Part shown: one piece after another, positions 1,858-54,815 of the stretch
Layout: every line of letters begins with the position of its first letter
Position numbering within the stretch: the stretch's first letter is position 1
Source: Okamejei kenojei
Taxonomy: Eukaryota
DNA: 64,000 bases
Reading direction: 5' to 3'
Assembly (NCBI GenBank): GCA_035221665.1
Contig: CM069134.1
Coordinates: 89,714,001-89,778,000, forward strand
The notes under the pieces: generated by a model
Seen by the model: the letters and a program-made list of their open reading frames with translations, nothing else
Database searches by the model: none
What the model was told of the DNA's origin: nothing
Made by a program: the position numbers and the translations under genes

Positions 1858-2271
1858 TCTATATATAATCTGTATTATACTCTGTATTATAATCTGTATG
1901 ATTCATACCTTGGTGGAATAGCAGTGATAGTGAGTGTTTGATTCTCTGATGGTAGGACATGCATGTGTGATGGTTAGGAAGTGACTTCAGATTGGTCATG
2001 TTGGAAGTCCCTCACTGAAATAGGAAATGCGTCGGAGGACGCCGTTTGGTGTTGTCAGAGTACCACACATTGCTCCTCCAGAGCCAGTTAAGTGTCAAAA
2101 GACAGCAGACAGGTGGGTACAAATTCCCTTGGAAGTTATTTCACTTTTGGATGTTCTAGGTGCGAATAGCAAGAGTTGGTAAAGACAGCTACAGCTGAGC
2201 AAACTCTATGCTTTTGCCAAATCTCTCAAACAAATCCAAAAGAATTACACCAAGAACGGTCAAGGACGCAA

Positions 2272-2802
2272 GCCGTCTTTCCAGGAGCAGCAGAGGTTCA
2301 CCTGCACCTCCTCGAACCTCATCTATTGCATCCGCTGCTCTAGGTGTCAGCTGCTCTACATCGGTGAGACCAAGCGTAGCCTTGGCAATCGTTTCACCCA
2401 ATATCTCTGCTCAGTCCGCAATAACCAACCTGATCTCCCGGTGGCTCAGCACTTCAACTCCCCCTCCCTTTCAAAATCCGACCTTTCTGTCCTAGGCCTC
2501 CTAGATTGGCCAGAATGAGGCCCACCGTAAATTTGAGGAGCAGCACCTCATATTTCGCTTGGGCAGTTTACACCCCAGTGGTGTGAACATTGATTTCTCC
2601 ATTTTCAGGTAGTCCCAGCTTTCTCCTCCCCTTCCCAGCTATCCCTCAGCCCACTGTCTCCGCCTCTTCTTCTTCCCGCCCCCCCCCCCCCCCCCACCCT
2701 CACATCAGTCTGAAGAAGTGTCTCGACCCGAAATGTCATCTATTTCCTTCGCCCCATAGATGCTGCCTCACCCGCTGAGTTTCTCCAGCATTTTTGTCTA
2801 CC
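2272..2802 (+). mobile_element. Penelope-like element 3' fragment (GIY-YIG endonuclease remnant plus terminal repeat with hammerhead-like core)
   Basis: Translates RFTCTSSNLIYCIRCSRCQLLYIGETKR…PVAQHFNS, followed by CTGAAGAA-gtgt-ctcg-accc-GAAA at about 2710-2733. Confidence 0.85.
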
Positions 2803-14191: not shown

Positions 14192-16174
14192 CAGTGCCCT
14201 CCATAATGTTTGGGACAAAGACCCATCATTTATTTATTTGCCTCTGTGCTCCACAATTTAAGATTTGTAATAGAGAAAAAATCACATGTGGTTAAAGTGC
14301 ACATTGTCAGATTTTAATAAAGGCCATTTTTATACATTTTGGTTTCGCTATGTTGAAATTACACCAGTGTTTAGGCATAGTCGCCCCATTTCAGGGCACC
14401 ATAATGTTTAGGACTCAGCAATGTCATGTAAATGAAAGTAGTCATGTTTAGTATTTTGTTGCATATCCTTTGCCTGCAATGACTGCTTGAAGTCTGCGAT
14501 TCATGGTCATCACCAGTTGCTGGGTGTCTTCTCTGGTGATGCTCTGCCAGGCCTGTATTGCAGCCATCTTTAGCTTATGCTTGTTTTGGGGGCTAGTCCC
14601 CTTCAGCTTTCTCTTCAGCATATAAAAGGCATGCTCAATTGGGTTCAGATCGGGTGATTGACTTGGCCACTCAAGAGTTGACAATTTTTTAGCTTTGAAA
14701 AGTTCCTTTGTTGCTTTAGCAGTATGTTTGAGATCATTGTCTTGCTGTAGAATGAACTGCCGGCCAATGAGTTTTGAGGCATTTGTTTGAACTTGAGCAG
14801 ATAGGATGTGTCTATATACTTCAGAATTCATTATGCTACTAGCTTCAGCAGTTGTATCATAGACAATAGGTGCAGAAGTAGGCCATTTGGCCCTTTTGAG
14901 CCAGCACCGCCATTCAATGTGATCATGGCTGATCATCCCCAATCAGTACCCCATTCCTGCCTTCTCCCCATATCCCCTGACTCCGCTATTTTTAAGAGCC
15001 CTATCTAGCTCTCTTGAAGGCATCCAGAGAACCTGCCTCCACTGCCCTCTGAGGCAGAGAATTCCACAGACTCGCCACTCTCTGTGCAGAAAAGGTGTTT
15101 CCTCGTCTCCGTTCTAAAAGCCTTACTCCTTATTCTGTGGCCCCTGATTCTGGACTCCTCCAACATCGGGAACATGTTTCCTGCCTCTAGCGTGTCCAAG
15201 CCCTTAACAATCTTATATGTTTCAATGAGATACCCTCTCATCCTTCTAAACTCCAGAGTGTGCAAGCCCAGCTGCTCTATTCTCTCAGCATATGACAGTC
15301 CTGCCATCCCGGGAATTAACCTTGTAAATCTACGCTGCACTCCCTCAATAGCAAGAATGTCCTTCCTCAAATTAGGGGACCAAAACTGCACACAATACTC
15401 CAGGTGTGGTCTCACTAGGCTCTGTACAACTGCAGAAGGACATCTTCGTTCCTTTATTCGATTCCTCTTGTTTGCATCGTGCTGTGTAGCCTCTTTATTT
15501 CTGTTCATGAATTCTTCTGCGGACCGTTGTCATTGACAATTCCACACCTGATTCCTGAAGAGTGTTTCTGATCTGTCGGACAGGTGTTTGAGGATTTTTT
15601 TAAATTATGGAGAGAATTCTTCTGTCATCAGCAGTGGAGGTCTTCCTTGTCCTGCGATTAGTAAGCTCACCAGTGCTCTCTTTCTTCTTAATTATGTTCC
15701 AAACAGTTGATTTTGGTAAGCCTAAGGTTTGGCTGATGTCTCTAACATTTTTATTCTTGTTTCTCAGTCTCATAATGGCTTCTTTGACTTTCATTGGCAC
15801 AACTTTGGTCCTCGTGTTGATAAATAGCAATAAATGTTTCCAAAGGATGGAAAGACTGGAGGAAAGACTAGCTGCTGAGAACTCTCTTATACCTGCATTA
15901 AGGAGGCATTTAAACACACCCAATCAATTACAAATGCCTGTGAAGCTATGTGTCCCAAACATTATAGTGCCCTGAAATGGTGGGGACTATGTATAAACAC
16001 AGCTGTAATTTCAACATGGTGAAATCAAAATGTATAAAAATACCCTTTAATAAAATCTGACAATGTGCACTTTAACCCCATGTGATTTTTTTCTATTACA
16101 AATCTCAAATTGTGGAGTACAGAGGCAAATAAATAAATTATGGGTCTTTGTCCCAAACATTATGGAGGGCACTG
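14192..16174 (-). mobile_element. Tc1 DNA transposon copy 1 (IR/DR type), defective, with nested CR1
   Basis: TA|cagtgccctccataatgtttgggacaaagaccca … tgggtctttgtcccaaacattatggagggcactg|TA, with TIRs of about 225 bp containing inner direct repeats. Transposase pieces: HTH (VRDISQTLGLPKSTVWNII) and catalytic LQQDNDLKH…WPSQSPDLNPIE. Confidence 0.95.
14859..15445 (-). mobile_element. 5'-truncated CR1 inserted in Tc1 copy 1
   Basis: [37 protein letters not shown] followed by CR1 3'UTR. Confidence 0.9.
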
Positions 16175-17242: not shown

Positions 17243-17409
17243 TGAATGAGAATTTTTGGCCCCGAGATTGGGGAAAGTAAGTGATTCCATTTATTTTTTG
17301 AAAAAAAGAATCATTCATCCAAAAGAGCATTTTAAATTAATATGTTAATCTTTGATTTATAATACTTGAAACTGAAGTAATATTGTTTTATTCTGTCTGC
17401 TTTCTGTAA

Positions 17410-18127
17410 AGACCGCTCCCTCTGTAACTCCCTGGTCAATTCTTCCCTTCCCTCCAGCACCAACCCCCTCACCGGGCACTTACCCTTGCAACCTCAAGAG
17501 ATGCTACACTTGTCGCTTTATCTCCCCCCTCATCTCCATTCAAGGACCCACGCAGTCATTCCAGGTGCAACAGAGGTTCACCTGCACCTCCTCCAACCTC
17601 ATCTATTGCATCCACTGTCAGCTGATGTCAGCTGATCTACATCGGTGAGACCAAGCGTAGGCTTGGCGATCGTTTGGCCAACACCTCCGCTCAGTCCGCA
17701 TTAACCAACCTGATCTCCCTGTGGCTCAGCACTTCAACTCCCCCTCCCATTCCGAATCCGACCTTTCTGATTCTGGTGCTCACTCTGGCCTCCTCCATGG
17801 CCAGCGTGAGCACCACTGGAAATTGGAGGAGCAGCACCTCATATTCTGCTTGGGCAGTTTGCACCCTAGCGGCATGAACATTGACTTCTCCAATTTCCGG
17901 TAGCCCTTGCTGTCTCCTCACCTTCTCAGCTTTCCCTCAGCCCTCTGGCTGCTCTTCTTCCTTTCTCCTTTCCTCTCCCCATCCCTCCCCCCCCCACCCT
18001 ACATCAGTCTGAAGAAGGGTTTTGTCCCAAAACGTTGCCTATTTCCTTCGCTCCATAGATGCTGCTGCACCCGCTGAGTTTCTCCAGCACTTTTGTCTAC
18101 CTTCAATTTCCAGCACCTGCAGTTCCT
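17410..18127 (+). mobile_element. Penelope-like element 3' fragment (GIY-YIG) with terminal repeat
   Basis: FTCTSSNLIYCI…IYIGETKRRLGDR…AQHFNSPSHSESDLS…KLEEQHLIFCLGSLHPSGMNIDFSNFR, then CTGAAGAA-gggt-tttg-tccc-AAAAC. Confidence 0.85.
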
Positions 18128-18711
18128 TTTTTTTAAAATTAAAATAAGTAAAATAAAATTTTATTTATTAGAAGTAATGTACATTACAGTGATATGCCAA
18201 AAATATACCACTTCTCGTTTAAACTTTTAGAAGAAGAAAAATAGAGAAAGTTAGATAAGATAGTAAGTGCGTGAAAGAGTGATCAGGAAAAACCCGTACA
18301 AGCGTAAAACACGAGAAAGAATTAAAAAAACAAAAGAAAAAATATCGTCTTAAAACCTAATATTGTTTTAATCTATTGTTTAAAAAAAAAATGTTTTGCC
18401 TATCAGAGATATTTTAAAGTTCTAAACCCTCACAGACTTTGACAATAAACGAAGCTCTTCCCATGACTTTTCCTCTGTCAAATGTTATCTGACCTGTGGA
18501 GGAACATTACCCATATGGCAATACTGCATGAAGCTATTTTGCTCCACAGGCAAAGCTGTGCCCCTTTGCCAGCTTTCCCAATGCGGAAAGTTGTTCTTCC
18601 ACCTCCGGCTCAGGTAGGTGCAGGTGAGTAGCAGGCCTAGTCCACTGCCACTTTACCTTTAAATGGTTTACCTTAATTTTAACATCCTATATTTTGATTT
18701 AAAAAAAACTA

Positions 18712-20455: not shown

Positions 20456-21298
20456 AAATTAAATGTGACATCTCCAAGTTAGCGGATGATGCAAAGCTTG
20501 GTGGCAATGTGAGCTGCGATGAGGATGTTATGAGGCTGCAGGGTTACTTGGATAAGTTGGGTGAGTGGGCAGAAGCGTGACAGATGCAGTATAATGTGGA
20601 TAAATGTGAGGTTATCCACTTTGGTGGCAAGAACAGGAAGGCAGATTATTACCTGAATGGTGTCAGATTAGGAAAAGGGGAGGTGCAACGAGACCTGGGT
20701 GTGCTTGTACATCAGTCACCAAAAGCAAGCATGCAGGTACAGCAGGTGTGAAGAAAGCTAATGGCATGTTGGCCTTCATTGCGAGAGGATTTGAGTTTAG
20801 GAGCAAGGAGGTCTGACTGCAGTTGTACAGGGCCCTGGTGAGACCGCACCTGGAGTATTGGGTGCAATTTTGGTCTCCTAACTTTGGGAAGGACATTATT
20901 GCTATTGAAGGAATGCAGCGTAGGTTCACCAGTTAATTCACGGGATGGCAGGACTGACATATGATAAAAGAATGGGTCAACTGGGCTTGTAGTCACTGGA
21001 ATTTAGATGGATGAGATGGGATCTTATAGAAACATATAAAATTCTTAAAGGACTGGACAGGCTAGATGCAGGGAAAATGTTCCCGATGTTGGGGGAGTCC
21101 AGAACCAGGCGTCACAGTTTAAGAATAAGGGATAGGCCATTTAGGACTGAGATGAGGAAAAACGTATTCACCCAGAGAGTTGTGAATGTGGAATTCACAG
21201 AAGGCCGTGGAGGCCAATTCATTGGATGTTTTCATGAGAGAGTTAGATTTGGTTCTTGGGGCTAAAGGAATTGAGGGATATGGGGAAAAAGCAGGTTC
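20456..21298 (+). mobile_element. CR1 RT/C-terminal fragment (its 5' 30 bp lie at about 19697-19728)
   Basis: [20 protein letters not shown] and DLIETYKILKGLDRLDAGKMFPMLGESRTR. Confidence 0.88.
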
Positions 21299-24200: not shown

Positions 24201-25346
24201 TGAAGATACGAACAGACTGCAAAAGTTGTAGCTTCATTACTGCATTAAAGCTCCACCCAAGTACTTTTTGCTTTGCTGATTTCTACCAACACATTTGTAG
24301 TTAATATCTGATTATGAGGTTGGAAGATTAACTTTATTTCTGCATGGTGAGTCCAGAGTTCATATGTGCCTGTACAGTACTGGAAGTTGTTCAAGCTTGG
24401 AGACTAGCGTGTCCCGAAGACATTGGCTTTCTTGCAAGCTTGGGTTTAAATTAGACCTATTTGTGCATGATGTAAATCAATATGTTGGGTACCATCATCT
24501 GCTTTTTACATCTATATGACAGTAACACAAGTTATCTGTGCTATCGTCTGTTGAGCATTGTAACATTATATATTGTGATGCCCTGAGTAAACTTTCTGAG
24601 GCTGGCTTAAAGGATGATACCACTGAAGATGATAGTTCAGATTTTGTCATCTTCCCAAACCACTTAATGTGATCAGCAAATTAAAATTTCAACAAGTCAT
24701 TTAAGATTACTGTGCTATGACTATAAAACCCTAGGTAAGGTTTCTTGTGGTTTCACAGTCATTTCTGAGGCAGCATTTTCTGGCACCATGCCCAGTCTTG
24801 GACGACGTCTTCAGCTTCTGTGATGAGTGAATGTATTACTTGTATCTGGGAACATTATAATTTGTAATGATTGGTGATGTGCTGATTTATAATAAAACAA
24901 ATCCATACAGTGGCATTTACTTTTAATTATTTTTATTGAACTTGAGTTCATTTCATGTCATGAACCCTGTGTTATGATTAAATACAACTTAATGAGTGGC
25001 AGTCATGATTTTTGCCTTGTTCAAGTACTGACTTTCATGTCTATTTAACATGATTTGCTGAAGCACCCTTTCATATTACTGTTTAGCAAACAAGGGTGAG
25101 GTAACCCTGTATAGTTCCTGGCAAATGAATTGTAGCACTTACTGTAGCTAATTTTTTTTGCGTCCACAAATGTTCCACCCCGATTAAGCATTGTTTATTT
25201 CATCCAAATCCATTCTGCTGTATCCTTCTAGTCTTATGCAAAAATAAATCATGAATCCTCAACATTGTAAAATGTTTTTTTGTATTGCGCTGCTGATAGC
25301 ATAACTATCTAAGCATGCATAATCTATGCATCAAATCCTTTGACCA

Positions 25347-25449
25347 AGGTAGACACAAAATGCTGGAGTAACTCAGCGGGACAGGCAGATTCTCTGGAGA
25401 GAAGGAATGGGTGACGTTTCAGGTTGAGACCCTTCTTCAGACTCTTGGA
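25347..25449 (-). mobile_element. Stand-alone ~100-bp Penelope-terminal-repeat element with hammerhead-like core, flanked by a 15-bp direct repeat
   Basis: caaatcctttgacca at 25332-25346 and 25450-25464. Minus strand reads agt-CTGAAGA-a-gggt-ctca-acct-GAAAC-GTC. Confidence 0.8.
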
Positions 25450-26399
25450 CAAATCCTTTGACCAGTTACATTGCTGAAAATGTTTGATGCATTTGAATTT
25501 TATTCTTGCTATTCTGAAATGTAATATGTGCTGCATTGACAAGCTGCTCTTTTCTTGGAAACACTGACCTGGATTTTTCAGGTCGGCAGCAAAATAACAC
25601 TGCTGCTTATCGAGAAGAAGGCTGTCTTATGTGGTCTTTGCCTTTGTCCTGTGTTAATTTCATATTGTGGATCTCTGGGATTTCTGGTGTTTAAGCAATC
25701 TGAACAGATGCTCATAGATGGCAAACAAGAAGTAGAGTCCCACCATTTCATCAACATTTTGGAGATGACGAAATGAAGACAGCGTAGAATACCAGTCAAA
25801 TGTGAAACAAAATTATTTAGCAATAGTGTAGTTCACCGCTAAACGCTCAGCCATATATGAAGGCACAGCAAATTCAACAGCAAGAATAGTTTGTAAATAA
25901 TGAGGTTCACCAATTCTTTAATTGCCCTAATGAATAATACTACTGCAGCCAGTGATGGGGCAGCAACTTATACATTTCAACATCAAACGATAGATGTTTG
26001 CACTGCACCAGTTGCTGTCATATTTTCTTCATTATAACAATGAATGCTGACAGTCTGTTATTGTCATCGCAGATTCTAGGCCATTAAGATCATTTACATA
26101 ATTGTGCAGAAATCTTTTCTATTCAGTTGAAATAAGGAACAAGATTTTATTGTCTGTTATCAAGGCAAGACAGCTTTATTCAAAATCAGCTTAAACTCCA
26201 GCAGCAAGTCATCTTGATTTCCTATACTGACCCTTGAATTTTACAACACACATATAATGCTTTTTGGTTTGACTTGAATGGATGATGAAGTACATTAAAT
26301 ATCTCAATTTTTCAGTGATTTAGCAGAATAAATGTTTTGGCAAACATTGTTGATTCCTAGCTTGGATTCACCAAGTAAGGCAGTCAATTTAGAAATCTT

Positions 26400-31116: not shown

Positions 31117-31692
31117 CATAGAAACATAGAATATACGTGCAGGAGGAGGCCATTCGGCCCTTCGAGCCAGCACCGTCCCCAATCAATAACCTCGCGCCTG
31201 CCTTCTCCCCATGTCCCTTGATTCCATTAGCCACTAGAGCTCTATCTAACTCTCTCTTAAATCCATCCAGTGATTTGGCCTCCACTGCCCTCTGTGGCAG
31301 GGAATTTCACAAATTCACAACTCTCTGGGTGAAAACGTTTTTTCGCACCTCAGTCTTAAATGGCCGCCCTTTTATTCTAAGGCTGTGGTCCCTGGTTCTG
31401 GACTCGCCCAACATTGGGAACATTTTTCCTGCATCTAACTTGTCCAGTCCTTTTATAATTGTATATGTTTCTATAAGATCCCCCCCTCATCCTTCTAAAC
31501 TCCAGTGAATACAAGCCTAGTCTTTTCAATCTTTCCTCATATGACAGTCCCGCCATCCCAGGGATCAATCTCGTGAACCTACGCTGCACTGCCTCAATCA
31601 CAAGGATGTCCTTCCTCAAATTAGGAGACCAAAACTGTACACAATACTCCAGATGTGGTCTAACCAGAGCCCTATACAACTGCAGAAGAATC
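31117..31692 (-). mobile_element. 5'-truncated CR1 with (TTTCTATG)n tail
   Basis: [25 protein letters not shown]…, 3'UTR, and catagaaacatagaa on the + strand. Confidence 0.9.
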
Positions 31693-33130: not shown

Positions 33131-34101
33131 ACGTCTTCTATACTTGATTACATTTGCAACAGCTTTTTCCACATATTTTGCTCCAGCTGCTCTGAATGCA
33201 CTGTCCCTTCGTCTCCAGACACCTTTCATTTTCTTAATGAATGATTCTTTACAAATGATTCTAAGCAGCTAGTATTGGCAGCAATTGATTGTATGATTCA
33301 TATATAAACTCAATTGCAACAGTAGATGTGTTTGTATAAATGTACAAAAAGCTTACAATGAAAAGTTACAAGTCCTACTCCAATACTAGTTGGGTTGATC
33401 ACATTCTAGAAAGAAACAAACAGAAAATTATTTATCTAACAAATTGTAATGTTACTATATTGGAACCCAGAGAATCTAGTTTAAATCCATGGAAGGCCAG
33501 TTGACACACTTGTGTTGTTCTATGTATAAACGACCATCTCTGAACAGACTGAAAACCAACACTGGGAACTTCCTCAGGATGTGTTCACTACATCATCAAG
33601 GGATCTCTAATGTGAATTATTGTCCATGTTAAATTGGCAGTCACATTTTACACAGTGTAGGATAGCACTCTGTACAGTAAATGCTACCAAACAAAGGAAA
33701 TCATATTCATTGAAAGGAGAATGATCTTTGCAAATTGAACCGACAGGCAATCAATGTCCCTTGGAAATAATGTCTTGGGACAAATCAATCTTTCTTGGGA
33801 GAAAGGTGGACAATGTTAATTTGGTTGATTCTGAATTTCCTCTTTAGAATTGGCCTACACCTTTTCCCAGGAATAATGGTTCATAACAGTTTTTGTCTTA
33901 CAGACATTTTGAGACTTTTGGGGTTTGGTTGTAATAATAAGATGGGAGTGAACCTATGAATTTAATGTCCCAAATGTTAATGATAATTGAGAGAAAATCT
34001 AGAATTTCTGTAGTCCAACTGCAGTTTCAAAACTTTCAATTTCTTGCGTGGATGCTACTGAGATTGCCTGTATGGTGCAGAAATCACAGATTTCAAGGGA
34101 G

Positions 34102-34205
34102 GTAGACACAAAATGCTGGAGTAACTCAGCGGGACAGGCAGCATCTCTGGAGAGAATGAATGGGTGACGTTTCGGGTCGAGACCATTCTTCAAACTCAAG
34201 GATTT
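34102..34205 (-). mobile_element. Stand-alone Penelope-terminal-repeat element flanked by a 15-bp direct repeat
   Basis: cagatttcaagggag at 34087-34101 and 34206-34220; body nearly identical to 25347-25449. Confidence 0.8.
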
Positions 34206-36339
34206 CAGATTTCAAGGGAGACTAAGTCTGCAAAGAAGCAAGGTTAGGAAACATTTAATTTATTTGCATTAATTATGGTTTAATTTTGTTTGGTTTGTTA
34301 GATGAATTTAAGTTGGAATATTTTGAGTTTGTTTCATTCAAAAATATTTAAAGAGTCTGACATCTTTGGCAGCCAACAAAATTGCTGTTGAGGATTCTGG
34401 CTGGGTTTCATAAGCAGAGCTTGTTTTGACCCATGCATGTAACTCCACAACAATATTCACAAAACTGCTGAGGTTTGGATTCCAAGACACTTCAGGGCGG
34501 TAGGGGGATCTACCACATATAGCATTTTTAGATTCAGGAATGCAGTAGCAGAATCATGCCATTCAAATGCAGTCACATTGTTGTGGAGCATTTTCCTCTA
34601 CTGCAAAAAAACTTACATTTGCTTTCCACCACCAAGGTTTGCTGGATCTCACGTAGCTGACCATTTTATCTCCCTTTGTCATTACCATACTAACATTTCT
34701 GTCCTCGGCCTCCACGATTGCCAAAATCAGCCCACACCCAAACTGGAGGAACAGCACCTTATATTCCAGTTGGGTAGCTTACAATATAACAGTAGGAACA
34801 TTTGAATTCTCTAATTTTAGTTAACTAACTCCAAGCACCGCCCCCACTCTTCCCAATGCCCCACCTGGACTTGATCATTTATCCCCTTTCTTCTCCTTCC
34901 ACCTACAGTGCCTTCCATAATGTTTGGGACAAGGACCCATCATTTATTTATTTGCCTCTGTACTCTACAATTTGATATTTGTGGTTAAAGTGCACATTGT
35001 CAGATGTTAATAAAGGACATTTTTATATATATTTTGGTTTCACCATGTAGAAATTACAGCAGTGTTTAGGCATAGTCTCCCCATTTCAGGGCACCACAAT
35101 GTTTGGGACATAGCAATGTAATGTAAATGAAAGTAGTCATGTTTAGTATTTTGTTGCATATCCTTTGCATGCAATGACTGCTTGAAGTCTGCGATTCATG
35201 GACATCACCAGTTGCTGGGTGTCTTCTCTGATGATGTTTTGCCAAGCCTGTATTGCAGCCATCTTTAGCTTATGCTTGTTTTGGGGGTAATCCCCTTCAG
35301 TTTTCTCTTCAGCATATAAAAGACATGCTCAATTGGGTTCAGATCGGGTGATTGACCACTCAAAAATTGACCTTTTTTTTAGCTTTGAAAAACTTCTTTG
35401 TTGCTTAAGCAGTATATTTGGGATCATTGTCTTGCTGGAGAATGAACTGATGGCCAATGAGTTTTGAGGCGTTTGTTTGAACTTGAGCAGATAGGATGTG
35501 TCCATCAAAGCTGCCAAATAGTACGGATTTTCCGTATTTTGTACAGAAATGCGATAAGAATCCGGATGTATGGATTTGCTTTGTAAAATACAGATTTTTT
35601 TTTAAAATAGGCCCGACTTCCTGTTTCATCTTGCTACCTAAAAAATGCCAGGATATAATAAGTCATGATGTACCTCTAAAAACTATAGTATTTTAAATTT
35701 CAAGATCTGGAAGAGTATTTTTGTAAACTTTGATCTGCCTGTCCCGCTACAGGTTTAAACAGCGCTGTCAGTTTAGCACAGGGAATTTAAATGAACAGCG
35801 CTCTGGGTTCTAATTATAGCGCTACTAGCTGGAGCTCTATTGCATTTACACATAGCGCTATGGGCTTTACACATAGTGCTATGGCCACAGCGCTATAGGA
35901 CACGCACACGCACACACACACGCACACACACTCACCCAATACTAAAATGCCAAGTAACTTCAGAACGTGTTGAATATACAGTGTGTAAAACAAATGTTTA
36001 ATGCCTCCTGTAGAGGCTGCTGCTGCTGAAGCAAAAACGTGCTTTAAATAACATCCAACAAACACACTCACCATAGAGTAGCTCTCTTGAATTATTCAAC
36101 GGCGCCTGCACTTGGCGCCATCTTGATGTCACCCTCTTGCTTCTTGCCACAAACCGGAAATGACACACTCAACGCCAACATACCTCTAACCGGAAATGAC
36201 ATCATCGGCGCCATATAACCATATAACAATTACAGCACGGAAACAGGCCCTCTCGCCATCTTGCAACTAAGCGAAAATCACTGAATGAGCGCCAATTTTG
36301 AAATGAAACACAGTCCTGATCTAATAAAATGTTTATTCA

Positions 36340-36770
36340 CGCTTTATCCACTGGAGTTTAGAAGGATGAGGGGGCATCTTATAGAAACATATAAAATTAT
36401 AAAAGGACTGGACAAGCTAGATGCAGGAAAATTGTTCCCAATGTTGGGTGAGTCCAGAATCAGGGGGCCACAGCCTTAGAATAAGGGGGAGGTCATTTAA
36501 GACTGAGGTGAGAATTTTTTTTTTTACCCAGAGAGTTGTGAATTTATGGAATTTCCTGCCACAGAGGGCAGTGGAGGCCAAATCACTGGATGGATTTAAG
36601 AGAGAATTGATAGAGCTCTAGGGGCTAGTGGAGTCAAGGGATTTGGGGAGAAGGCGGGCACGGGTTATTGATAGCGGACGATCAACCATGATCACAATGA
36701 ATGGCGGTGCTGGCTCGAAGGGCCGAATGGCCTCCTCTTGCACCTATTTTCTATGTTTCTATGTTTCTAT
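36340..36770 (+). mobile_element. CR1 3' fragment with (TTTCTATG)n tail
   Basis: LEFRRMRGHLIETYKIIKGLDKLDAG, then 3'UTR ending ctatgtttctatgtttctat. Confidence 0.88.
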
Positions 36771-38472: not shown

Positions 38473-41400
38473 TGGCAATGAATGCACTGTCAAGTACGGT
38501 GCGTAGAAGACGTCAATTGGTACCAAAGTTATGCATTCTTGTACTCTTACATGGGTATGACCGCACATAAAAAACATTTTTTTCAGCAAAATTGCACCGC
38601 ATAAAAAATACTGATTTTCTCAGCAAAATATTGATTTTCAGGTGCTAGAATACTGAAATGCTCTGACAAAACTTGGCAGCTCTGGTCTATACACTTCAGA
38701 ATTCATTATGCTACTACTATCAGCAGTTGTATTATCAATGAAGATGTGAGCCAGTACCTTCAGCAGCCATACATGCCCAGGCCATAACACCCCCACCACC
38801 GTGTCTCACAGATGACGTGGTATGTTTTGACTTGGGCAGTTCCTTCTCTCCTCCATAGTTTGCTCTTGCCATCACTCTGATATAAGTTAATCTTCGTCTC
38901 ATCTGTCCACAAGACCTTTTTCCAGAAATGTGGTTGCTCTTTTAAGTACTTCTTGGCAAACTGTAACGTGGCCATCGTATTTTTGCGGCCTACCAGTGGT
39001 TTGCATCTTGCAGTGTAGCCTCTGTTCATAAAGTCTTCTGTGAACTGTGGTCATTGACAAATCCACACCTGACTCCTGAAGAATGTTTCTGATCTGTCGG
39101 ACGTGTTTGGGGATTTTTCTTTATTATAGAAAGAATTCTTCTGTTATCAGCTGTGGAGGTCTTCCTTGGCCAGCCAGTCCCTTTGTGATTAGTCAGCTCA
39201 CCAGTGCTCTTTCTTCTTAATGATGTTCCAAACTGTTGATTTTGGTAAGCCTAAGGTTTGGCTGATATCCCTAACAGTTTTATTCTTGTTTCTCAGTCTC
39301 ATAATGGTTTATTTGACTTTCATTGGCACAATTTTGGTCCTCATGTTGATAAACAGCAATCAAAGTTTCCAGTGATGGAAATACTCTAGGAAAGATTACG
39401 TGCTGAGAGCTCTCTCATACCTGTATTAAGGAGGCAATTAAACACACCAGAGCAATTACAGATGGCTTCTGAGCAATTACAAACGCCTGTGAAGCCATGT
39501 GTCCCACACATTATGGTGCCCTGAAATGGGGCATTATGTATAAATACAACTGTAATTTCTGATTGGTGAAACCAAAATATATAAAAATGGCCTTTAATAA
39601 AATCTGACAATGTGTACTTTAACCACATGTGATTTTTTCTATTACAGATCTCAAATTGTGGAGTGCAGGGGCTAATATATTAAAGATGGGTCTTTGTCCC
39701 AAACATTATGGACGGCACTGTATATTCCTTCCTCAGTCTTCACAATTTGCACCTCTTATATTCTTATCTCACAACTTATACATTTTCAGTTCTGGCCTTT
39801 GTCCAACCATTCACTACCAACCCCAGCTGTATCCACCTATCACTCGGCAGGTTTTGACCTGCCCCTCCTTTCTTCCATCTTTCTCCTCCCTGCACCACAA
39901 TCTGGCTGAAGAAGGCTCTCAAACTAAAACATCACCAAACCATGTTCTCCAGAGATACTGCCTGACTCGCTAAGTTAATCGAATACTGTCTTTTTTAAGG
40001 AAAAGTAGTAGTTAATATAAAAGATATTTCAGTTCTAATATTTTGCTTTTCCATTAGGAAGGAAGTTTGTATTGTTTGTAGTATGATATAAACTATCCTT
40101 AATATTCTTTTATGGTATCTTGGATTCTTTTTACTGTTATTTAGCTGTTGGAGACTGCTGTTGTTCACCCACAGCTTGTATAATGGCCTCGATAATCTCA
40201 ATTGTAGCTCATAACAGGTGGGAATGAAGTGAAGGATGATGATATAGGACACTGCTTGTGTGTTCGTTGTAAATTAATTATTTCTGGATCCACTGGTGAT
40301 AGGTGACAAAGGACAGAGTTTGTGGAATGGCAAAAAAAATCACAAACAGCTCAAGATGTTATTGGATAAGTTACTACAGGAGTAGATATATCAGAAATAG
40401 AACTTTTTAGCAGTTATCCCTTTGATCGGTCAAGCAATATCTTTTCCTTTGCTTGATACTTTACCTTAGAATTTGTATGCGATCCAATCTCCCTCATGTT
40501 GTTGATTTTTGTATTTGATTCTATATGTTCTGATTAATTGTGCAGTCTCTGCTTTGCAAAATGCCACTCTTGCGTTCATTTAAATTGCTTTTTTATTGAA
40601 TGGGTATGATGGTTTGGAATCGGAGTCGTGCTCATTGGAATCAATTGATTTTTTTGTCAATCACATTTATACTGAGTTTTTGTCCCAGTTGGCTTTTCCT
40701 CCTGTGCTACATAATATTCTGGACATAGAAAATGTATTTTTAATGTTTGTTTTAAGTAACCAATCGTTGTTGCAATAAAGATTAAAACTCTGACAATTCT
40801 AGCTATGATAAACCAAAGGGAATAAAATGTCCAAATTTGTCATTGAGGTGCCAGTAGTCAAGCAATTGTGATTTCTAGTCAGTGAAGTGCCCAATAACGC
40901 AATGTTATTGTTCCTATTGTTTAGCCCTTAGAGGGTGGGGGTGGGGTTGGACACCCAGCTTGTTTACTGAAACACAAAAGTAGAGCTTAATTTCATTGTT
41001 AACAACTTTTTACTATTGAATTAAAGATTGTTAACTTTTGTGAATTAAATCCTTTAATTATTTCAAGTCATTTGAATTATTTTTAAAACATAGTGCTTCC
41101 TATGAAAACCTTCTTTGTTGAACCTTCCATCTCTGTTGTGGACAGAGGTATTGGTGAGAAGATCTAACTAACAGTTTTCTCAAAAGCAATTTATGAAGTC
41201 AATAGCTTTATAGCTCATTTATTGTCTTTATATTCCAAACAAATTTATCCCAATATTAGTTTGTAGTGATGACATGAGCAGAAATCATTCACCATAGGTA
41301 ACTAATCTGTATAATTACTTCCAGAAAATTAAATCATCTTTACAGGAAGCAAGATTTTTTATAGAAATGTTTTGTTTTTGATTATTTTCCAATGTAAATT

Positions 41401-43840: not shown

Positions 43841-44470
43841 AGACAGAGAGTACACACAGATACACACAGACAGCAGCTGGCCACCACTTCAGAGGAATGA
43901 GGCAGCGGGTGACTTTTACACACAGATTAGAGCGAGAGATACACACAGACAGCAGCTGGCCACCTTCAGAGGAATGAAGCATGATGAAGCAGTTACCACA
44001 CACACACCAACACACACACAGACAGCAGCTGGCCAACCACTTCAAAGGAATGAAGCAGCTCGGGTGACTTTGAGCGCCACCGGACGCCGACAGCAGAACA
44101 CACACACAGATACACACAGAGAGTCTCTGTGTGTGTGTGTTGTGTGTGTGTGTACTCGCTCAGTCACCCGAGCTGCTTAATTCCTCTGAGTGGTGCCATT
44201 ATCTGTGTGTACTATCATCTGTGAGTGGCCGCTCAAAGTCACCCGAGCTCTTGATTCCTCTGGAGCTGCTGTCTGTGTGTATCTCTCTCTCTATGTTTGT
44301 GTGTGTTTGTCTATCTCACATTTGTGTCTGTGTGTGTTCTGTGTCGGGTACATCTCCTCTCTGGTCTATCTGTGGTGTGTGGTGTACTGCCGGGTGGATT
44401 AATTCCTGAAAGTGAGTGGTGTGTGAGTCGTGTGTACCTGGCGGCCGCTCAATGTCAGTCACCCGGGCTG
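43840..44470. repeat. Imperfect fold-back repeat: (CA)-rich arm, then (TG)-rich arm, centred near 44121
   Basis: acacacagaga-g-tctctgtgtgt at the centre; agctcgggtgactttgagcg on the left versus cgctcaaagtcacccgagct on the right. Confidence 0.7.
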
Positions 44471-50679: not shown

Positions 50680-51495
50680 GTCACACACTCATTTCACCAC
50701 TGCCAATGGGAAGAAGGTGCAGGAGCCTGAAAACTGTGATTCCAGGTTCAGGAACAGCTTCCCTACAGCTATCAGGCTATTAAACATGACAACCTCAAAT
50801 AAGCTCTGAACTTCTATAGACATTATTATTGCACTATTATTGTTTTGTGTGTATTTGTGTGTGTACTCGTGAGTATGTGTGTATTTATGCACACTAACTT
50901 TTTTTTCTCTTTATCATATTGTTTAAAACATAGAAACATATAAATTAGGGCAGAGTATGCCATTCAAATCCCTTCGATCCTGCACCGCCTTACAATATGA
51001 TCATGGCAGATCATCCAACACAGTATCCCGTACCTGCCTTCTCTCCATACCCTCTGATCCCCTTAGCCACAAGGGCCACATCCAACTCACTCTTAAATAT
51101 AGCCAATGAACTTCCTAAACTACCCTCTGTGGCAGAGAGTTCCAGAGACTCACCACTCTCTGTGTGAAAAAAGTCTTTCTCATCTCGGTCTTAAAGGATT
51201 TCCCCCTTATCCTTAAGCTGTGACCCCTTGTCCTGGACTTCCCCAACATCGGGAACAATCTTCCTGCATCTAGCCTGTCCAACCCCTTAAGAATTTTGTA
51301 AGTTTCTATAAGATCCCCTCTTAATCTCCTAAATTCCAGAGAGTATAAACCGAGTCTATCCATTCTTTCTTCATAAGACAGACTGGATAGACCAGTTTAC
51401 GGTGTACTATGTTTACATATTCTGTTGTGCTGCAGCAAGTAAGAATTTCATTGTTCTATCTGGGACATATGACAATAAAACACTCTTGACTTGAT
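50680..51495 (+). mobile_element. Rex1/Babar-type LINE 3' end, interrupted by a CR1 (50927-51382, minus strand)
   Basis: LPMGRRCRSLKTVISRFRNSF-like remnant and tail atgacaataaaacactcttgacttga. The nested CR1 encodes LGLYSLEFRRLRGDLIETYKILKG. Confidence 0.75.
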
Positions 51496-51984: not shown

Positions 51985-52686
51985 GAATTCAGATTATTAT
52001 CTGAATGGTGTCAGATTAGGAAAAAGGGAGGTGCAACAAGACCTGGGTGTCCTTGTACATCAATCACTGAAAGTAAGCATGCACGTACAGCAGGCAGGTC
52101 CTACTGCAGTTGTACAGGGCCCAGGTGAGACCACACTTGGAGTATTGTGTGCAGTTTTGGTCTCCTAATTTGAAGAAGGACATTCTTGCTATTGAGGGAG
52201 TGCAGCTCCCGCAACCTCAGTAGGTTTACCAGCTTAGACAGAAATATGATGAAAGAATGGTTACTGGCTTGTATTCACTTGAATCTAAAATTGGAGGGAT
52301 CTTATGGAAACCTGTACATCTTAAGGATTGGACAGGCTAGATGCATAACAAATGTTCCCCATGTTGGGGGAGTCATCAGAACTAAAGGGTCAAGTGTAAA
52401 ATTAAGAATAAGTAGGCCATTTAGTCTGAGATGAGGGAAAATCTTTTCACAGACCAGAAGTTGTAATCTGTGGAATCTCCTGCCACTGCGGCAGTGGTGG
52501 TCATTTCTCTGGATGTTTTCAAGAGAGAATCCCATATTAAACACTTGGGGCTAACTGATTCAAGGGATATGGAGAAAAGTAGAAACAGGGTACTGATTTT
52601 GGATGATCAGCCATGATCATATTGAATGGCGGTGCTGGCTCGCAGTGGCAGAATGGCCTACTCCTGCACCTATTTTCTATGTGTCT
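51985..52686 (+). mobile_element. Degraded CR1 3' fragment
   Basis: [29 protein letters not shown] followed by CR1 3'UTR. Confidence 0.8.
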
Positions 52687-52694
52687 AATCCGAA

Positions 52695-52803
52695 GATAGA
52701 CACAAAAAGCTGGAATAACTCAGCGGGTCAGGCAGCATCTCGAGAGAAAGGGCATAGGTGATGTTTCGCATCGAGACCTTTCTTCAGACTGAGAGTCAGG
52801 GGA
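52695..52803 (-). mobile_element. Penelope-terminal-repeat short element
   Basis: Homologous to 25347-25449; stem II of the core is degenerate. Confidence 0.75.
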
Positions 52804-53004
52804 AAGCTATGTATAGTGGACGAGGAGTGCTTTACATGCAAGAATCTGAATAGAGATGATTTTGCATATTACTTAATTGGTAAATCACATCTAAAAGAGT
52901 ATTAGATATTCACTTACAGAATAAGTAACTCATTCTTTTTAAAGCTAGATTCTAGTGTTGTTGTGTTCTTTACTCTCCATTTTTCTGATTCACAGTACTA
53001 CTAT

Positions 53005-53382: not shown

Positions 53383-53742
53383 TAGACAAAAGTGCTGGAG
53401 AAACTCAGCGGGTGCAGCAGCACCTATGGAGCGAAGGAAATAGGCAACATTTCGGGCCGAAACCCTTCTTCAGACTGATGGAGGGTAGTGGGGGCGGGGA
53501 GAAGAAAGCAAAAAGGAGGAGGAGGAGCCCAAGGGCTGAGGGAGAGCTGAGAAGGGGAGGAGACAGCAATGGCTTACGGATTTGGGAGAATTCAATGTTT
53601 ATGCCACAAGGATGCAGACTGCAAAAGCGGAATATGAGGTGCTGTTCCTCCAAGTTCTGGTGGTGCTCACTCTGGCCATGGAGGAGGCCCAGGACAGAGA
53701 GGTCGGATTCGGAATGGGAGGCGGATTTGAAGTGCTGAGCTT
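53383..53742 (-). mobile_element. Penelope-like 3' fragment with hammerhead-like core
   Basis: AQHFKSASHSESDLSVLGLLHGQSEHHQNLEEQHLIFRF; minus strand CTGAAGA-a-gggt-TTCG-gccc-GAAAT-GTT. Confidence 0.85.
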
Positions 53743-54740: not shown

Positions 54741-54815
54741 GGTAGACAAAAATGCTGGAGAAACTCAGCGGGTGAGGCAGCATCTATGGAGCGAAGGAAA
54801 TAGGCGACATTTCAG
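54741..54815 (-). mobile_element. Truncated Penelope-terminal-repeat element
   Basis: ggtagacaaaaatgctggagaaactcagcgggtgaggcagcatctatgg matches the reverse complement of about 2755-2802; it breaks off inside the core. Confidence 0.75.

Follow-up and report, generated by a model that had tools for sequence, protein, structure and literature searches.

The window, that is, the whole 64,000-nt stretch of Okamejei kenojei DNA analysed here, contains eight copies of a unit that is the hammerhead-plus-tail terminal segment of a Penelope-like retroelement (PLE), inserted with target-site duplications. All eight had been claimed in the original prediction, and alignment finds each of them (Table 1). 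Positions within the unit are numbered on the coding strand with C3 of CUGA as 0, and the predicted type-I hammerhead cut falls between +27 and +28. Four of the copies had been described as stand-alone units beginning at the core, which proved correct for two of them, those at 25347 (start at −3 or −4) and 34102 (start at −3). Each of these two is flanked by the exact 15-bp repeats that had been reported for it, with fillers of 6 and 9 nt, respectively. The other two start elsewhere: the copy at 52695 retains 19 nt of the upstream pLTR, and that at 54741 begins at +20 and is without the CUGAAGA half of the core. The UUCG loop noted for the copy at 53383 is found at 53458–53461. Copies within the window have lost bases of the core or of the helices to decay, as listed for those at 34102, 25347 and 52695.

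Table 1. Copies of the PLE terminal unit and associated features in the 64-kb window.
Feature	Position	Strand	Remark
Stand-alone PLE terminal unit	25347..25443	-	Start −3 (A of AGU-CUGA); end at the short (+95) site
Minimal hammerhead core, C3 to C17, of the 25347 copy	25413..25440	-	C11.1 decayed to U; numbering as in PMC4209133
Predicted cut of the 25347 copy	between 25413 and 25412	-	
Target-site duplication at the 3' end of the 25347 unit	25332..25346		15 bp, exact
Target-site duplication on the 5' side of the 25347 unit	25450..25464		
Filler between duplication and 25347 unit	25444..25449	-	6 nt
Second stand-alone unit	34102..34196	-	Start −3; core damaged (C3U, G10.1U)
Target-site duplication, 3' side of the 34102 unit	34087..34101		15 bp, exact
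Target-site duplication, 5' side of the 34102 unit	34206..34220		9-nt filler at 34197–34205
Unit with 19 nt of upstream pLTR	52692..52806	-	Helix II broken
Fragment from +20	54741..54813	-	CUGAAGA half of the core missing
5'-truncated PLE: end of endonuclease region, pLTR, unit	2260..2802	+	Core at 2710
5'-truncated PLE: linker/endonuclease region, pLTR, unit with tail	17393..18135	+	Core at 18009
5'-truncated PLE with UUCG-loop hammerhead	53383..53740	-	Core at 53473
Old copy of another subfamily, about 88 nt of pLTR	39821..39980	+	Core at 39906

The window also holds a PLE endonuclease fragment with no unit behind it (34653–34802), a second dispersed repeat family of 400–600 bp whose copies are 70–85% alike (14858–15468, 20784–21296, 31117–31688, 36341–36766, 50926–51381 and 52089–52687), and an imperfect 390-bp inverted repeat with arms of simple sequence (43918–44304).

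The parent element can be recognized from the long copies, in which sequence of a reverse transcriptase is found together with a CX4CxxC linker and a GIY-YIG endonuclease. In these, the unit lies on the coding strand 100–250 nt past the endonuclease stop and occurs a second time in front of the ORF. The Pfam matches of the long copies are both below the Pfam cut-off (GIY-YIG, E 0.005; RVT_1, E 0.0005), because the PLE copies are broken by frameshifts. One locus, L241, is near full length and consists of pLTR, unit, tail, a body of about 3.3 kb, an interrupted pLTR and a second unit. The parent thus has the reverse transcriptase with C-terminal GIY-YIG endonuclease of an EN+ PLE, and also its pLTRs in partial tandem or inverted order and its 30–40-bp tail, as seen in L241, in head-to-head pairs and in the two 3' ends. 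A CX2-5CxxC linker between reverse transcriptase and endonuclease defines the Neptune/Nematis clade (PMC8557442), and the linker motif of the parent points to Neptune or Nematis.

Some further arrangements were met among the long copies. On its minus strand, L241 has a donor-like AAG/GTATG about 165 nt behind the core that overlaps the probable ORF start codon; no splice reads were seen at this site at low RNA-read depth. Many short PLEs (L202–L220, L253–L272) have an internal deletion with a breakpoint that is different in each, and consist of a front unit, tail, 80–180 nt of body, rear pLTR and second unit; their two hammerheads, 250–450 nt apart, could adopt a dimer fold. At L012:1272–1504, a PLE unit lies within the pLTR of another subfamily and has a pyrimidine leader of its own.

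We now turn to the hammerhead motif. The consensus originally put forward, CUGAAGA-A-GGGU-nnnn-RCCC-GAAAC-GUH, holds across 258 sampled copies, and its assignment to the PLE minimal hammerheads is borne out by its fit to the published pattern. The core boxes CUGANGA, GAAA and UH, with an extra base after A9, are present in the 258-copy consensus and in the main clusters, helix II is closed by G10.1-C11.1, and there is a palindrome at 15.2–16.2. Rfam hammerhead models gave no match in the window up to an E value of 10. Variation in helix II is one-sided (U-A in 203 and U-G in 24 of the 258 copies), and no two-sided change was seen. Helix I, which had been estimated at about 2 bp, is indeed 2 bp long and falls short of at least 3 bp: in the long copies, the first position pairs in 69 of 76 (U-A 44, U-G 25) and the second in 71 of 76 (G-C 66, G-U 5), while the third is an unpaired A.C in 71 of 76. 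When two young copies are folded as monomers, the helices of the hammerhead come out with a probability close to zero, and none of the folding z-scores of eight copies is under −1.75. The core is intact in 18/90 stand-alone, 19/88 inverted and 26/69 long copies. Its CpG positions (G12, 73%; 16.2, 66%) are less conserved than the loop positions; the suggested check of core over loop conservation is uninformative here, since the copies decay neutrally and CpG positions of the core drop. Published minimal hammerheads are described as cutting weakly and only as multimers (PMC4209133), and that of an anole PLE as needing its protein and being dispensable for insertion (PMC11167929). Judged by its sequence, the ribozyme is a predicted PLE minimal hammerhead, decayed in most copies.

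The genome (2.76 Gb, 1141 contigs) was sampled with a search profile made of the 59 nt downstream of the hammerhead, which is hence blind to the 5' end. It matched 349 times in the first 1.0 Mb, with 0 matches in the reversed control, and 658 times in 1.6 Mb taken as 160 pieces of 10 kb at even spacing on the 31 largest contigs; by extrapolation from this sample, the genome-wide copy number is roughly a million. Dropping 28 matches without full flanks and 49 with an alignment short of +60 left 581, which deduplication reduced to 557. These comprise 205 copies with an inverted unit upstream, 127 that stand alone from the core, 117 shorter, 83 long, 19 tandem and 6 intermediate ones.

The 5' ends of these copies are strongly clustered. 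As many as 249 of the 557 lie at −10 to +4, with modes at −3 and −2, and the stop rate per nucleotide is 0.096 at −5 to +4 and 0.056 at −10 to −6, compared with 0.003–0.017 elsewhere. The ends are scattered across about 10 nt rather than fixed at one base. When uniform truncation was simulated and processed by the identical method, 35/300 ends were recovered at −10 to +4 (29 true). The ends of the short copies are thus not random, as had been anticipated. The inverted copies have a matching peak (125/225), and loose ends at −4 to −2 were also found in contigs from two other public runs. Upstream of −4, the stand-alone copies have background sequence with no common leader (118 copies). Target repeats with at least 10 matches flank 25 of 124 core-starting stand-alone copies and 0 of 246 shuffled pairs, which supports the earlier suggestion that the Penelope machinery inserts the short copies; in these 25, the duplication measures 11–17 bp and the filler −2 to 15 nt.

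Could the peak be an artefact of divergent upstream sequence, superimposed on ordinary random 5' truncation? The pLTRs differ by subfamily, so that a subfamily not represented in the comparison would seem to end at CAG, and 9 of 133 stand-alone calls do have pyrimidine-rich sequence upstream. The mean upstream pyrimidine content, however, is 0.50, equal to background, the inverted copies peak in the same way, and the duplications abut the 5' ends. Random truncation as the main cause is refuted by the simulation and the target-site duplications, and we regard it as extremely unlikely.

The position of the peak also bears on the idea that the units process themselves. Because the cut of a type-I hammerhead comes after C17, cleaved units would begin at +28 and have lost the core. 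Only 6 of the 557 ends lie at +27 to +29. Since the ends are at the core and not at the cut site, self-cleavage does not make the unit. A cut after the GUC at −2 to 0 was considered and rejected: the +1 ends it would give number 14/581, as against 49/581 at −3, and the helix I pairing is missing.

The stand-alone copies had further been proposed to form a retrozyme-like family of their own, and this part of the original prediction fails. When 258 copies are divided into four clusters (k=4), every cluster mixes stand-alone, inverted and long copies, and in the youngest (3% divergence) long and stand-alone copies number 13 each. With k raised to 6 and 8, just one cluster is made up of a single class, that of inverted copies whose core is altered. 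No independent SINE-like lineage with private variants was found, and 9 of 118 stand-alone copies are 97–100% identical to a long copy. A direct (tandem) upstream copy is present in 19/557, most of them partial, so the tandem repeats with one hammerhead per unit that mark retrozymes were not seen within the sample, nor were unit ends set by cleavage. With stand-alone and long copies sharing every main cluster, there is no separate retrozyme-like family. A self-processing short family, retrozyme- or SINE-like and mobilized by Penelope, would account for the discrete size, the target-site duplications and the high number (127 of the 557 sampled), a pLTR origin has been reported for animal retrozymes (bioRxiv 10.64898/2026.07.22.740005), and secondary copying of some stubs is possible. 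Besides the end positions and the clusters, however, such a family is contradicted by stand-alone copies that are 100% identical to long ones, by the rarity of tandems, by a core that is intact less often in stand-alone than in long copies and by the monomer folds of the two young copies. We consider this reading largely refuted and very improbable.

Five inverted units with an altered core (L047, L074, L158, L069, L116) are only about 1% divergent and lie within a longer repeat with GT-rich arrays; this unit seems to have been secondarily amplified as part of another repeat (a cluster of 6–9 rows).

At the other side of the unit, the 3' ends form two groups, at about +88 to +96 and +123 to +135. 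The sequence CCAGCA occurs once ahead of each 3' end site, at +74 and +103, and is a candidate protein-binding or priming signal. In the youngest subfamily (L130:3191–3328), the predicted fold pairs the first 12 nt of the RNA with the tail near the long priming site.

Head-to-head pairs were found in 82 rows (75 distinct), and tail-to-tail pairs in 4. A duplication with at least 9 matches lies outside both 3' ends in 32 of the 82 head-to-head rows, compared with 4/293 controls, and a head-to-head pair is therefore one insertion. Among 69 scorable pairs, 54 combine one long and one short arm (expected 49%, p 4e-7), the rest being 14 short-short and 1 long-long. Similarity between the halves of a pair exceeds that of random pairs only slightly (median 0.79 vs 0.76). 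The two arms share one starting boundary, and their ends are the two priming sites, an arrangement that speaks for priming on sense RNA at each of the nicks. A one-ended tail has already been described in PLEs (PMC8557442).

The behaviour of the front and rear units is informative about the 5' boundary. Loci were picked with one DNA query, the sequence just behind the tail, which gave 46 rows, with 2 duplicate loci removed; where a unit leads into the beginning of the element's body, it counts as the front one. Most front-unit loci run on into the rear pLTR and second unit, with breakpoints that vary by locus. Of 19 front units that reach the core, 13 stop at −12 to +4 and 6 pass −20, two of the latter being probably misaligned. 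Rear units of the same loci, on the other hand, pass −20 in 23 of the 30 cases that reach the core (front vs rear, Fisher p 0.003). Since rear units are mostly read through, the core is no general roadblock. We infer that the enzyme reads through the core when there is RNA upstream and mostly stops on the front unit; an RNA beginning at that point would be expected to produce this pattern.

This comparison also counts against a model with the same PLE origin in which pausing or template switching by the reverse transcriptase, either at the near-palindrome UCAG-U-CUGA or where an RNA structure has its base, takes place on RNA that continues upstream. Some head-to-head junctions do overlap exactly on the near-palindrome, folding pairs the 5' strand of the core with downstream sequence, and palindromic inverted junctions have been described (PMC3846280). 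Yet the rear units that are read through have the identical sequence, the stop is at the 5' foot of the predicted stem and not at its 3' entry, and most junctions carry fillers or other overlaps. A pause of this kind is in our estimation a rather improbable cause.

We propose instead that the units are probably run-off copies, of the strong-stop type, of the first 100–135 nt of the PLE RNA. The transcript would start at about the A at −3, and the RNA would then carry the segment at both ends. The PLE protein would nick the target and prime reverse transcription at an internal site, +95 or +135. Primed on the front copy, synthesis would run off the 5' end of the RNA and leave a strong-stop-like stub; primed on the rear copy, it would give the ordinary 5'-truncated long copies. 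If both nicks are primed, one per site, two stubs would be joined head to head, and the free ends would be closed by end-joining that leaves microhomology or short fillers. The hammerhead would be cargo: the template would be uncut RNA, and the core would since have decayed in most stubs. With an RNA start at −3, the front copy would have nothing further for helix I pairing. In LTR elements, minus-strand strong-stop DNA is a short cDNA that extends from an internal priming site to the 5' end of the RNA, across the terminally repeated segment. The stubs would work in the same way, except that they would be target-primed, with no tRNA primer and no integrase, and that the short product itself is inserted.

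The motif at the boundary is compatible with a start site. YCAGUCU is kept across subfamilies with otherwise unrelated pLTRs; in 24 long core-anchored copies, whose pLTRs are unrelated and pyrimidine-rich, C is found at −4 in 24, A at −3 in 23 and G at −2 in 24. We take this motif at the unit start to fit an initiator consensus. An Inr-like motif has been reported in a rotifer pLTR (PMC3846280). An extra G before the 5' end, which would mark cap copying, gives no signal at −3 (3/17 copies) and a borderline one at −2 (8/15, p 0.06); in the inverted copies it is in excess at −2 (20/25), where it may derive from the partner arm. A poly(A) RNA run (X24, from a related or the same organism, about 6% read) had neither start peaks nor a splice joint among the matches listed (15 of 209 in one search, 14 in another). 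Its depth is dominated by passively transcribed copies, and the run is therefore no evidence either way. The start near −3 is one that we infer rather than observe directly. Counting against the run-off reading are, besides the lack of a clear cap signal and the spread of the 5' ends, the 6 of 19 front units that extend upstream, the choice of the front and rear set by one query, the slight similarity between the halves of pairs and the detection of a target-site duplication in just 25 of the 124 stand-alone copies.

The pyrimidine tract and CAG ahead of the core fit a splice acceptor equally well. In this alternative, again with a PLE origin, the 5' boundary is the acceptor (pyrimidine tract plus CAG/U), the RNA that serves as template has been spliced or is an intermediate of splicing, and synthesis ends at the junction or close to it. 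The near-invariance of CAG at −4 to −2 in the 24 long copies behind unrelated pyrimidine-rich pLTRs favours it, as does Penelope of D. virilis, in which transcription starts at 371, the intron spans 416–491 (PMC2377424) and the intron ends at helix I (PMC4209133); a start about 120 nt upstream of that intron end (PMC2377424) was counted against run-off. On the other hand, in none of the loci examined is the core joined to the end of the endonuclease or to the donor-like site that follows the tail. Element sequence upstream at a score of at least 14 was found in 0/118 stand-alone copies (controls 4/300), these copies have no common leader, and many ends retain A(−3) or C(−4), which splicing would take off. 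We therefore judge the splice acceptor to be an unlikely explanation of the boundary. Returning to run-off, we put forward its fullest version tentatively, at chances just under even: a terminally redundant PLE RNA would start 3 bases before the hammerhead, a protein dimer would prime two nicks at different tail sites, and the hundreds of thousands of stubs would be frozen strong-stop intermediates.

The motif closely resembles the metazoan PLE minimal type-I hammerheads (Cervera and de la Pena 2014, PMC4209133), sharing the CUGANGA-H core with an extra base after A9, G10.1-C11.1, the palindromic 15.2–16.2 and the lack of helix III. CUGAAGAA is common in the alignment of that paper, which includes 2-bp helices I in Culex, D. 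virilis and Oikopleura and describes thousands of single motifs as "probably related to truncated PLEs". The present repeat differs in its 4-bp helix II, its helix I of U-A or U-G plus G-C and its roughly one million copies, and in the clustering of 5' ends at the core, which was not found in the accessible part of PMC4209133. The hammerhead motif and its single-copy dispersal being already known, the finding as originally stated is an ordinary one.

Poseidon PAc of Anolis carolinensis (Frangieh et al. 2024, PMC11167929) likewise has a pLTR hammerhead followed by two internal priming sites. These are about 30–40 nt apart, genomic 3' ends occur at both and none at the cut site, and in vitro both strands are cut and extended from the two sites, hammerhead mutants leaving insertion unaffected. 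Unlike PAc, the present element has a CX4CxxC linker of the Neptune/Nematis type and an ORF that apparently starts behind the tail, not in helix II; short copies, probably run-off products, dominate here, and the accessible text of PMC11167929 was found without a treatment of 5' ends. The head-to-head pLTRs with the duplication outside, the one-ended tail, the solo pLTRs and an Inr-like motif in a pLTR are all shared with EN+ PLEs elsewhere (Arkhipova et al. 2013, PMC3846280; Craig et al. 2021, PMC8557442). There, the cause is given as recombination or as self-priming with an antisense template, whereas we invoke priming on sense RNA. Animal non-LTR retrozymes (Cervera and de la Pena 2020, PMC7229834; Li et al., bioRxiv 2026) are also non-coding, related to pLTRs and equipped with a type-I hammerhead. 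They are described as tandem units of mostly 170–400 nt with canonical, efficient hammerheads and circular RNAs (PMC7229834; bioRxiv 10.64898/2026.07.22.740005), in contrast to the dispersed 100–135-nt monomers or inverted pairs with a minimal core seen here. The cartilaginous-fish retrozyme families of the latter work may include the present repeat. Our literature search found no paper that reads PLE stubs as run-off/strong-stop or twin-priming copies, older subscription papers lying outside the search, and none on PLE hammerheads of cartilaginous fish, with most subscription papers outside it.

The informative part of these copies is their ends: a sharp 5' boundary immediately ahead of the core, hardly any ends at the cut site, two 3' sites and a long/short rule for the arms of a pair. 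All of these can be taken directly as predictions for the existing in-vitro PLE system. They bear on the way in which pLTRs, inverted repeats and one-sided tails arise in PLEs, with regard to both the sense or antisense nature of the template and the role of the ribozyme. If the proposed mechanism is true, a sense template alone would account for solo and inverted pLTRs as well as for a tail on one side only and a helix I of such shortness, and the ends of such copies would allow the start of the transcript and the priming sites of any PLE to be read from its genome.
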